Assembly: GCF_002571385.2 (NCBI RefSeq)
Contig: NW_019217932.1
Span: forward strand, 222,329-278,837
Length of the DNA: 56,509 bases
From: Stylophora pistillata
Lineage: Eukaryota
Direction: 5' to 3'
Shown: positions 3,502 through 9,472 of the stretch, piece after piece
How positions within the stretch are numbered: the stretch's first letter is position 1
How the letters are laid out: every line of letters starts with the position of its first letter
Made by a program: the position numbers and the translations under genes
Notes under the pieces: generated by a model
The model's database searches: none
What the model was told of the DNA's origin: nothing
Seen by the model: only the letters and a program-made list of their open reading frames with translations

Positions 3502-5922
3502 TCATTTCGTGTGTAACAATTTGTATGTACAAAGAAACACTCGTTTTGTGCTGTCAATCAATGGATTTGTCCCAAAAACATTCAATTTAAACATTCCAGC
3601 TTTTGGCAGCTCACATGTCATGACAGTCATGTTGTCAGCTGTTTCCACTGGACACGAGTTGCCAATCTGCTTATCATTTGCGTCAAACAGCCACGACGTA
3701 ATGGAAATATCGTGAGGATTAGAAAATGTGACTTTCACATGACTGTCACGTGAAACAATGTTCTCCAACTGATCCACTAGTTCCAGTCCCCACTCCTTAA
3801 ACTCGGCCTTCACGTAGGGGAAGCCTGGGTTTGAGCTAGGGGCTTGATCAGACTTGATCATGAATGTTGCTAAATATTCATTGTCTTTGCTCTCAGGTTT
3901 TTTGCCAAATACGTTCAGCTGAAAAATGCCGGCTTCAGGAGAATGAACAAGAATTGTGCCAACACCCTCCGCTGTGTTACTGAAGCACAAATTGTTGTCA
4001 AGATGCTGTTTGTCTTTCATCAAATACCCACGAACTGATACGTCATCCAGTGTCTTCAGCTTAACACAAGCTCGTCCATCCGGGGTATAAATATTCTGCT
4101 TGGGCTCCTTGAGCTCCAGGCCCCACAATACAAAGCTGTCCGACATTCGGGGAAAGCCTGGCACAGGTTTTACACCAGCGAGTGCATTTATGTAATAGGT
4201 ACACACGAAAGTATCTGGCTTTCCCTCACCAAAATACTTGGCAAACACTTTCAAGGTGTACTCGCCCGGAAGTGGGCAATGCACCAAGACTCGGAAACCA
4301 CTCACTGTCTTCTCTGAGTGGCAAAATGAAAATTCACCGAAGTCTTTTTTGAGTCGTTTCCCCTCTCCTACAAGGTCAAGCTGTCCAAAGATGCAAGAAA
4401 TTTGAATGTTGTAGTTCTGTAATGAGATGTAAGCCTTTCCGTCGTCGGATACAATGTTCTCGAGTGGATGATCGAGGTTGAATCCTGCTTCATAAAACTC
4501 ACTTCCCAATTGCGGGAATCCCCCTCGATTTTTCTCAACTCCTTTCTTAGCGTGGATGTTGTATTCTATTCCACCATGCCACTTTGTATTGGACACCTCG
4601 TCTCTGATGTACAAATTCAACTTGTACTTTCCAGGAGCGGGGAACTGTGCTTTAAGCTTGACTTGGTTCACTCCACAAGGTAGAATCTGTGTCCATCTTC
4701 TTCCTTCGTATTCTTTCCCTGAGATGTTCTTCAGATCACCTCGCAGCATCTTCAGCGATGGAGAGTAGAACATCATTTCGATGTGATCTGTATCGTCAAT
4801 ACTGTACATGCTTTCCTTGTGACTGAGAATTTCCAATCCCATCTGGTGAATTCTTCCAGAAGGCACAACCAGCTTCTCAAATTCTTCCTTGCTGATGGGT
4901 ACATCAAGGAGCTGCCATTGTTGGTCGGATGGGTAATGACTACATATAGCATATTCGGGGTCCATCAGGAACATTGACACGTCTGGGCTGCGGTGGAACA
5001 TCAAATCAGCTCCCAGGTAACCAGCGCCCCATGTAGGCTCAGAAATGAACCACTCACCGTTGACTTGAACTCCATTCCACGCATGATTTGTTTCTTTAAT
5101 CTGCTGGCCGGGCTCGAAGCCGTAACCCTTGGCGTAACCCGTGATGATATGTACCTGTAGACCGGCGGCTTTACCAAGTGCTTCGAAAAGATTCGCATAA
5201 CCAGCGCACACTGATGTTTTATGGCGTAGAACGCTAGCGGCATCGCAACTCTTTTTCTCGGTCCTTCCAAAGAAGCCATCCACATCATACGCGACATTGA
5301 AACTCACCCAGCGGAAAATCGCGTAGGCTTTGTTCCTGTCTCCTTCCCAGGGACTGGTCAGGTAGGTGCTCATTTTTTCAAAGCTTTCCGTTTGTTCATC
5401 TGGTGTCGCTAAAACATGTGCATCGATCTGCTTTTCGATTCCCGTGCGCTGTTGAAATTTTGCCAGTCGAAATTTTGCAAGAAACCGTCGAATGTTAGTT
5501 TGAATAAAAGTGATCATTTCTAAAGAAGTATTCGTTTCTGCAGTAATACTTTCAGCATTCTTGTGTTGAAACACCACTGACGGTCGAGCGAACATGCCAT
5601 GCCTCGGCTCACAATTGAAATAATGAACTCCATCGAAGAATCCATCGTTCCCCTGTGAATGTGGATGGTCTAACTCAATTCCTATCCATTCGCCGCCGCT
5701 TGGGTCGCGTAAATAACCAATAAACCTGACAGCACCCGTGTATCCAGAAACATGCACTCGGTCGCCAAGGGAAAATTGATTTTCACCTCTCTCAATTAGG
5801 CTTGTTTTGGGAGCTTTATCGTCGGGTACATTTGGTTTCGAGTCAAAGTTTTCGTTCGCATTTTGACTGTGATTTGTGGTCTCGACGGCTGTTTGGACCG
5901 ATTTTGATGTTCCACATCCCAT
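3502..5922 (-). CDS. CAP-Gly + transglutaminase-like (kyphoscoliosis peptidase/hillarin-type) protein, paralog 1, 806 aa, single coding exon
   Basis: MGCGTS acylation motif; CAP-Gly (GDRVHV..G.VRFIG..WIGIELD..GNDG..YF.C..HGMF); transglutaminase-like core AYAIFRW..VCAGYANLF..GYAKG..NHAWNGV..EPTWGAG; C-terminal beta-rich KY-type repeats (FPAPGKYKLNLY, CPLPGEYTLKVF, SPEAGIFQLNVF). Confidence 0.88.
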   Translation of the reverse strand: MGCGTSKSVQTAVETTNHSQNANENFDSKPNVPDDKAPKTSLIERGENQFSLGDRVHVSGYTGAVRFIGYLRDPSGGEWIGIELDHPHSQGNDGFFDGVHYFNCEPRHGMFARPSVVFQHKNAESITAETNTSLEMITFIQTNIRRFLAKFRLAKFQQRTGIEKQIDAHVLATPDEQTESFEKMSTYLTSPWEGDRNKAYAIFRWVSFNVAYDVDGFFGRTEKKSCDAASVLRHKTSVCAGYANLFEALGKAAGLQVHIITGYAKGYGFEPGQQIKETNHAWNGVQVNGEWFISEPTWGAGYLGADLMFHRSPDVSMFLMDPEYAICSHYPSDQQWQLLDVPISKEEFEKLVVPSGRIHQMGLEILSHKESMYSIDDTDHIEMMFYSPSLKMLRGDLKNISGKEYEGRRWTQILPCGVNQVKLKAQFPAPGKYKLNLYIRDEVSNTKWHGGIEYNIHAKKGVEKNRGGFPQLGSEFYEAGFNLDHPLENIVSDDGKAYISLQNYNIQISCIFGQLDLVGEGKRLKKDFGEFSFCHSEKTVSGFRVLVHCPLPGEYTLKVFAKYFGEGKPDTFVCTYYINALAGVKPVPGFPRMSDSFVLWGLELKEPKQNIYTPDGRACVKLKTLDDVSVRGYLMKDKQHLDNNLCFSNTAEGVGTILVHSPEAGIFQLNVFGKKPESKDNEYLATFMIKSDQAPSSNPGFPYVKAEFKEWGLELVDQLENIVSRDSHVKVTFSNPHDISITSWLFDANDKQIGNSCPVETADNMTVMTCELPKAGMFKLNVFGTNPLIDSTKRVFLCTYKLLHTK

Positions 5923-9472: not shown

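Follow-up and report, generated by a model that had tools for sequence, protein, structure and literature searches.

A KY-like protein family carrying a predicted lipid anchor and a CAP-Gly domain in stony corals and sea anemones

The KY gene underlies a human myopathy, and the available accounts describe both the activity and the substrate of its product as undemonstrated (PMC6078408, PMC10848947). The triad of human KY is given as C225, H267 and D282, with Asp as the third residue (PMC13434911). The fungal protein SppB shares the KY triad, which according to its published description is needed both for wound plugging and for the cleavage of its own N-terminal part (PMC10848947). In this study, two genes encoding a KY-like core behind a CAP-Gly domain were analysed in a stretch of 56,509 nucleotides from the stony coral Stylophora pistillata (RefSeq assembly GCF_002571385.2, contig NW_019217932.1, forward-strand positions 222,329 to 278,837), referred to here as the window, in which all coordinates are counted. 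The fusion is real, conserved over the span of corals and anemones, and an apparently undescribed variant of the KY-like family.

The two genes are long, neighbouring open reading frames arranged in tandem on the minus strand, both intronless and each a single open frame. Paralogue A (P0001, 3502..5922) encodes 806 residues beginning with MGCGTS, and paralogue B (P0002, 7019..9472) encodes 817 residues beginning with MGCGSS. Both have the same domain order, namely the MGCGxS start, a CAP-Gly domain, an IQ-like helix, a transglutaminase-like core and four KY-type Ig domains (3514..4887 in A and 7034..8404 in B, minus strand). All Pfam matches exceeded the curated cut-offs: CAP_GLY with E-values of 1.5e-18 in A (66.9 bits) and 6e-19 in B (68.2 bits; cut-off 26.5), Transglut_core (PF01841) with 8.7e-13 in A (48.9 bits) and 3.5e-12 in B (47 bits; cut-off 23), and Ig-like_KY (PF23265), in four stretches per paralogue, with 2.8e-42 in A (144 bits) and 1.8e-44 in B (151 bits). 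In an AlphaFold2 model of paralogue A built on a 55-row alignment (mean predicted local distance difference test score, pLDDT, 83.9) every domain was confidently folded; residues 1-48 were disordered, and after them came the CAP-Gly domain, a long helix (residues 134-157), the core and the four Ig domains. The arrangement of acylation motif, CAP-Gly, transglutaminase-like domain and KY repeats, which a preliminary description of this DNA had read in both paralogues, was thus borne out by the reading frames, Pfam and AlphaFold2.

Both paralogues are transcribed. At least 20 sequencing runs contain this stretch, five of them on record as RNA and coming from two studies. In both genes the unique 5' part is covered by RNA contigs, at 4103-6136 (run X5), 5257-6061 (X1) and 5484-6154 (X2) on paralogue A and at 8774-9457 (X1), 8886-10101 (X2) and 9085-9595 (X4) on paralogue B, runs X1-X3 being RNA by guess only. 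No RNA joint fell within either reading frame among the joints listed, which in one listing were the best-supported joints only. Contig depth does not allow the two genes to be ranked, and there is low cover between the genes too. As a separate observation, a single study yielded, in two of its runs, RNA contigs that omit 7.3 kb (2853-10198) spanning both paralogues, with splice-like ends on the minus strand. The acceptor of this skip requires a T at 2856, which run X5 has and the window lacks; the joined piece has no long open reading frame and is possibly an allele-specific non-coding transcript.

The two copies differ at only 4 of 258 codons over residues 213-470, compared with 46 of 72 in the CAP-Gly domain and 86 of 336 in the C-terminal part. 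The homogenised tract occupies 4513..5286 on the minus strand (codons 213-470 of A) and matches 8030-8803 in B. In run X17, which is presumed to be DNA, both unique flanks were found and the common tract was collapsed at raised contig depth. This fits gene conversion, by which the core has likely been homogenised between A and B; the possibility that the duplicate is an assembly artefact was rejected on the same observation.

With residues 1-400 as query, 152 matches were obtained, and at least 94 among the 120 listed combine CAP_GLY and Transglut_core, many of them near-identical. Six named fusion proteins appeared among the matches listed, from Orbicella, Stylophora, Montipora, Actinostola and, in two cases, Nematostella, so that the named members listed are all from stony corals or anemones. 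A further search of 1.84 billion representatives returned 12,973 matches; seven of the best 150 span both domains, one being the named Nematostella protein and six having no name. Since a fusion whose core matches weakly might rank below 150, the range is given as hexacorals, to the extent that members are named. The 22 fusion rows tested all fell into one clade (99). A third paralogue (L003) lies on another contig of the genome (G000:C143:517070-519694); it is intronless, encodes 941 residues with one extra Ig-like repeat, and has Ser in place of the catalytic Cys. Nematostella possesses paralogues of the Cys type (P0086) and of the Ser type (P0096). Public records annotate these proteins automatically as 'kyphoscoliosis peptidase-like' or 'CAP-Gly domain-containing', and no description of the architecture was found in the literature searched (subscription journals and supplements excluded), in agreement with its earlier designation as undescribed. 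The architecture is also absent from those hillarin and mollusc KY-like relatives that were examined; the preliminary description had noted that characterised relatives (KY, hillarin and Cyk3) are not known to carry CAP-Gly. No hillarin-type gene was found in the coral genome by a search that exon-split genes may escape.

MGCxxS is a motif for N-terminal myristoylation and palmitoylation. Gly2, Cys3 and Ser6 of this dual-acylation motif are present in both paralogues (5905..5922 in A and 9455..9472 in B, minus strand), predicting myristoylation at Gly2 and palmitoylation at Cys3. Among 100 relatives examined, many of them near-identical, MGCxxS stands exactly at the start in 92 and near the start in 6. 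Trypanosome CAP5.5 is a described precedent for dual N-terminal acylation (PMC13317235). Two further proteins, the short P0132, which retains the IQ-like stretch, and P0093, which has no PF01302 match, start with MGCG and lack CAP-Gly; they may represent secondary losses or, alternatively, broken copies. The MGCGxS start, which the preliminary description linked to flagellar membrane proteins, is no specific pointer to cilia, as mollusc KY-like proteins without CAP-Gly begin identically.

The origin of the architecture was examined in a tree of 57 of 285 core domains, hand-chosen for spread, with some unnamed rows labelled by likeness and without vertebrate KY, SppB, Cyk3 or FAP246. The fusion clade (100/100) had as its sister four MG-led KY-like rows, at values of 93/91 that narrowly miss the starred level; three of these rows are named mollusc proteins (Saccostrea, Pinctada and Mizuhopecten) with an MGCGxS start, a Cys-His-Asp triad and no CAP-Gly. 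A mollusc KY-like query matched only the three fusion genes in the coral genome. Because this sister family is MGCGxS-led and lacks CAP-Gly, the predicted lipid anchor appears to be old and the CAP-Gly domain a graft; the acylation motif, the core and the Ig domains would have been inherited, and the CAP-Gly domain and IQ-like helix inserted.

A horizontal gain of the core from bacteria, followed by fusion to eukaryotic targeting parts, was first suggested by identity to prokaryotic proteins. It concerns origin and is compatible with any reading of function. The genes are intronless, core relatives are spread over numerous phyla of bacteria and archaea, the best 150 representatives mostly match in one domain only, at about 36-46% identity, and hillarin-type proteins are just about 31% identical. 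However, several matches that had been unnamed turned out to be eukaryotic (mollusc KY-like proteins, a Trimastix protein and a protein from marine protist transcriptomes with Pfam IQ motifs), the sister group is animal, and approximately unbiased tests did not reject an all-animal clade (p 0.556), an all-eukaryote clade (p 0.611) or union with the hillarin-type rows alone (p 0.574). The free tree search missed slightly better trees, so that the deep branching order is not fixed. The horizontal origin was therefore dropped as disfavoured, and we regard it as very unlikely.

The function that we tentatively favour, with a probability of about 0.45, is that of a lipid-anchored tether which holds microtubule ends at the cell cortex, and whose core acts, by cleavage or cross-linking, on cortical proteins in its vicinity and not on the tubulin tail. 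Acylation of Gly2 and Cys3 would bring the protein to the inner face of the membrane, with about 45 disordered residues serving as a leash. The CAP-Gly domain would take an acidic, aromatic-ended C-terminus, either the EEY/F end of alpha-tubulin or EB or a similar tail. Calmodulin may bind the IQ-like helix that joins the CAP-Gly domain to the core, a possible calcium gate, and, by analogy with fungal SppB, triad-dependent self-cleavage or cross-linking might occur at wounds or where mechanical stress acts. For the paralogue with Ser, tethering would be the main role.

The CAP-Gly domains are encoded at 5575..5769 in A (residues 52-116) and at 9089..9286 in B (residues 63-128), on the minus strand, and their beta fold is predicted with confidence by AlphaFold2. 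Conservation was assessed in 40 aligned fusion members, hand-picked among the listed fusions. Within the binding pocket the Asn of the motif is retained in 38 members and is His in 2, Trp is present in all 40, and Phe111 and Arg113 are each present in 37; pocket site 74 is Leu or Phe in 32, and the Val site of the aromatic patch is Phe or Tyr in 37. As reported, the Asn touches the EEY/F end, with His tolerated, and the aromatic patch of the T. brucei protein TBC-B consists of Leu, Val and Phe (PMC3806363). The pocket positions kept in the coral proteins correspond to those that hold the aromatic C-terminus in TBC-B, where Leu is likewise found (PMC3806363). The nearest CAP-Gly domains by sequence are those of CLIP, CAP350 and p150, with E-values of about 1e-12 to 1e-11 for CLIP and p150, compared with 3e-4 to 5e-4 for the distant CYLD. 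The last residues of coral alpha-tubulin exons are EEY, DEY or EEF. When CAP-Gly A (residues 46-124) was folded together with a coral alpha-tubulin tail of 36 residues, without alignments or controls, the predicted complex gave a score of 0.01 and a mark of 0.34 and counts neither way. Elsewhere in the protein set, P0122, P0125, P0128, P0129, P0131, P0134, P0135, P0237 and P0254 have 6 to 20 CAP-Gly domains each, with many non-GKNDG loops, and P0216 combines five CAP-Gly domains with a PARP domain.

The IQ-like helix lies at 5464..5505 in A (residues 140-153, within the model helix 134-157) and at 8981..9022 in B (residues 151-164), on the minus strand. It is a basic amphipathic helix conserved in place, where 37 of the 40 aligned members show the IQ-like pattern in its short form and 24 in its long form. 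The chance occurrence of the pattern was estimated by shuffles, about 3% of which contained the long form anywhere. A related KY-like protein of a marine protist (P0264) has Pfam IQ motifs ahead of its core. The predicted calmodulin site is a lead, not a finding. A stronger version of the mechanism, in which the CAP-Gly domain directs a calcium/calmodulin-gated, membrane-anchored cysteine enzyme to the tyrosinated ends of microtubules, where the enzyme cuts or cross-links proteins, is considered unlikely; if true, it would represent a new reader-plus-enzyme of the tubulin code.

Several observations weigh against the cortical tether. The CAP-Gly loops read HSQGNDG in A and HPQGNDG in B, which confirms the alteration of GKNDG to QGNDG seen initially; the motif Lys is missing from all 40 aligned members, and in the same genome three other CAP-Gly domains have GKNDG and a fourth has GKNNG. 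Mutation of this Lys or of the Asn to Ala impairs CAP-Gly binding as reported (PMC3806363), and the same source cites impaired binding for the Lys-to-Ala mutant of CLIP-170. Paralogue A (P0001) has Pro at position 74, the pocket site for Phe or Leu at which B retains Leu, and the net charge of the domain ranges from -5 to +4 among the 40 members (-3 in P0001) and is thus not basic. For the helix, the short IQ-like form occurred in 56-61% of shuffles, the long form is missing from 16 of the 40 members, the Pfam IQ profile (PF00612) matched neither the whole paralogues nor 31-residue segments, and a PDB search with the IQ-like segment gave no match. For the core, enzymatic activity is described as never having been demonstrated for KY itself (PMC6078408). 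That the coral CAP-Gly domain binds EEY/F-type tails is nevertheless plausible, although the binding has likely weakened or changed; with the motif Lys lost, it is probably weaker than that of CLIP-170.

The same loop raises the possibility that the specificity of the domain has switched to a non-tubulin partner or to a tail unlike EEY, in which case the protein, as a KY-like adaptor or enzyme anchored in the membrane, would belong to the contractile or junctional cortex, as KY, hillarin and Cyk3 do, and would not link directly to microtubules. In all 40 members a Gly precedes the Asn and the loop is longer by one residue, and the sequence QG(N/H)xG is fixed in the clade (Gly91 in 40, Gln90 in 39 of 40), which, together with the loss of the Lys, looks like selection for a different ligand; the neutral to acidic character of the domain points the same way. 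The CAP-Gly domains of CYLD bind non-tubulin partners. Among KY-family proteins, KY is placed at the Z-disc, where it may act through protein binding (PMC6078408), and Cyk3 is reported to act at the division site (PMC10848947). However, the aromatic-pocket residues and the Asn have been retained, and the coral sequence is much nearer to tubulin-binding CAP-Gly domains than to CYLD. We consider a switch of specificity possible but rather doubtful, and the cortical tether is preferred.

The core of the tether is encoded at 5038..5367 in A (residues 186-295) and 8555..8884 in B (residues 197-306), on the minus strand. The catalytic Cys and His, whose retention had been claimed, are present in both copies, and the third residue is Glu, giving intact Cys-His-Glu triads (Cys239 at 5206-5208, His280 at 5083-5085 and Glu295 at 5038-5040 in A; Cys250, His291 and Glu306 in B). 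The Cys-His and His-acid spacings are 41 and 15 residues, compared with 42 and 15 in KY, and the title of PDB entry 4dmo names an enzyme with a Cys-His-Glu triad. Among the 40 aligned members the triad is Cys-His-Glu in 22, Cys-His-Asp in 9 and Ser-His-Asp in 9, the last having exchanged Cys for Ser with the rest of the triad retained; such Ser-bearing versions have been suggested to be possibly still active as serine peptidases (PMC3495828). A model of residues 161-380 (mean pLDDT 91) had FAP246 as its top fold match (Z score 17.8, root-mean-square deviation, rmsd, 4.1, 202 residues aligned), followed by streptococcal TglA (Z 17.4, rmsd 2.6, 149 aligned) and then by other transglutaminase-like proteins. 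In the ESM Atlas, residues 1-160 gave nothing, and the matches, all to KY-like clusters and below 0.9, are leads only.

Vasohibins ranked 31st and 33rd in the fold comparison (Z 6.4, rmsd 4.3, 141 aligned; Z 6.0, rmsd 4.0, 134 aligned) and were not among the Foldseek matches listed. The Vasohibin profile (PF14822) did not match the paralogues and found a separate vasohibin gene at another locus of the genome (C151). These results bear on the possibility that the coral proteins are membrane-tethered tubulin C-terminal peptidases that remove the tyrosine or trim the tail. Such an activity would suit a CAP-Gly domain adjoining an intact papain-like triad and the fold shared with vasohibin, and active ciliary transglutaminase-like domains have been proposed to remove tubulin tags (PMC3495828). 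However, the vasohibin triad is reported as Cys-His-Ser (PMC10318531), the coral genome has its own vasohibin gene, and the CAP-Gly pocket would bury the very tyrosine that a carboxypeptidase must reach. In addition, the core is common to secreted prokaryotic relatives and is therefore not specialised for tubulin. The chance of a tubulin-tail peptidase is considered remote, and the vasohibin-like enzyme proposed earlier was not upheld, given the Z scores of 6.0-6.4 against 17.8 for FAP246, the different triad, the separate vasohibin gene and the replacement of Cys by Ser in 9 of 40 members. Of the membrane-microtubule-linking protease or cross-linker of the preliminary description, the membrane-microtubule linker stays the best reading; an action on tubulin tails is not supported, given the distant fold and the other triad.

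The fold match to FAP246 might instead indicate a structural part of the cilium, at the ciliary membrane or as a central-pair linker, with the core mostly a scaffold as in FAP246. Flagellar proteins commonly have IQ motifs and MGC starts. Of the solved structures, FAP246 matched best, both for the whole protein (Foldseek E 6.9e-19) and for the core, and it is reported as a C1b protein of the central apparatus (10.1101/2021.06.16.448709, PMC6548120); two nearby genes, one Rab-like and one for CIMIP6, are 4-10 kb distant. However, FAP246 is tied with streptococcal TglA, so that the fold match reflects family and not place, and FAP246 has LRR (leucine-rich repeat) and EF-hand domains and no CAP-Gly. 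Gene neighbours are weak evidence in animal genomes, and the named range, hexacorals only, is unlike that of conserved axonemal parts. A ciliary role is therefore quite improbable, and the lipid-anchored cortical tether remains the preferred function.

The significance of the fusion lies in the recognisable targeting module that this lineage has joined to a KY core, which is a direct hint where the core works. Natural Cys and Ser versions exist in a genetically tractable anemone and, if the stronger, calmodulin-gated version of the mechanism is true, these Nematostella paralogues offer a tractable way into the chemistry by which KY, a human disease gene, acts on its substrate. As it stands, the fusion is a lineage-specific domain shuffle.

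Other features were recorded around the pair. A small Rab-like GTPase gene (13278-17253, minus strand), presumably IFT27, has seven exons by RNA joints, one of which matches Pfam Ras. Head-to-head with it lies a gene for Ciliary microtubule inner protein 6 (about 17445-19517, plus strand; PF15667, E 4.9e-36) with an RNA joint at 17498-18793. Farther along, on the minus strand, are a BCCT betaine/carnitine/choline transporter with a PLAC8-like tail (23496-26749; Pfam match on 23499-25304, with the reading frame 26240-26749 resembling its N-terminal part) and, by Pfam, a steroid 5-alpha-reductase-like reading frame (41816-42622) and a bZIP reading frame (43592-44392), which we take to be ATF4-like. 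Copies of a short interspersed element, which is present in high copy number and contains inverted repeats, occur at about 2900-3230, 20470-20770 and 21570-21890, with very high depth at 2800-3400, and imperfect short tandem repeats of about 70 bases lie at 1680-1950.

Compared with known systems, the coral proteins are closest to KY and to the KY-like proteins of Pinctada, Saccostrea and Mizuhopecten, which have the same Transglut_core followed by Ig-like_KY repeats and nearly the same Cys/His spacing; the mollusc proteins further share the MGCGxS start and are sister in the tree. The coral proteins differ from them by the CAP-Gly and IQ-like insert, by Glu in place of Asp in 22 of 40 members, by a line with Ser for Cys, and by their Ig domains, of which the window proteins have four where Pfam marks two stretches in the three proteins from molluscs. 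The acylation motif common to cnidarian and mollusc KY-like proteins suggests that anchoring to the membrane goes far back in the KY family.

CYLD likewise has CAP-Gly joined to a cysteine protease; it differs in its USP deubiquitinase domain and in its several divergent CAP-Gly domains (E 3e-4 to the coral CAP-Gly). Vasohibins (VASH1/2) have the transglutaminase-like fold in common with the coral core (Z 6.0-6.4) and differ in their Cys-His-Ser triad, in being encoded by a separate coral gene and in needing SVBP; to our knowledge they have neither CAP-Gly nor KY Ig domains. Chlamydomonas FAP246, of central apparatus projection C1b, is the nearest solved structure for both the core and the whole model and is microtubule-associated, but it is annotated with LRR and EF-hand domains (PMC6548120), has no CAP-Gly in its annotation, and is 16-25% identical. 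Aspergillus SppB, which is likened here by description and not by sequence, has the same predicted triad as KY, a disordered N-terminal targeting region and a triad needed for function (PMC10848947); it differs in acting at fungal septal pores, and its description, as available, mentions no CAP-Gly (PMC10848947). Trypanosome CAP5.5 is a functional analogue that combines dual N-terminal acylation, a papain-fold domain and attachment of membrane to microtubules (PMC13317235), although it is calpain-like, mostly without catalytic residues, described without CAP-Gly, and homologous to the coral proteins not beyond the superfamily.

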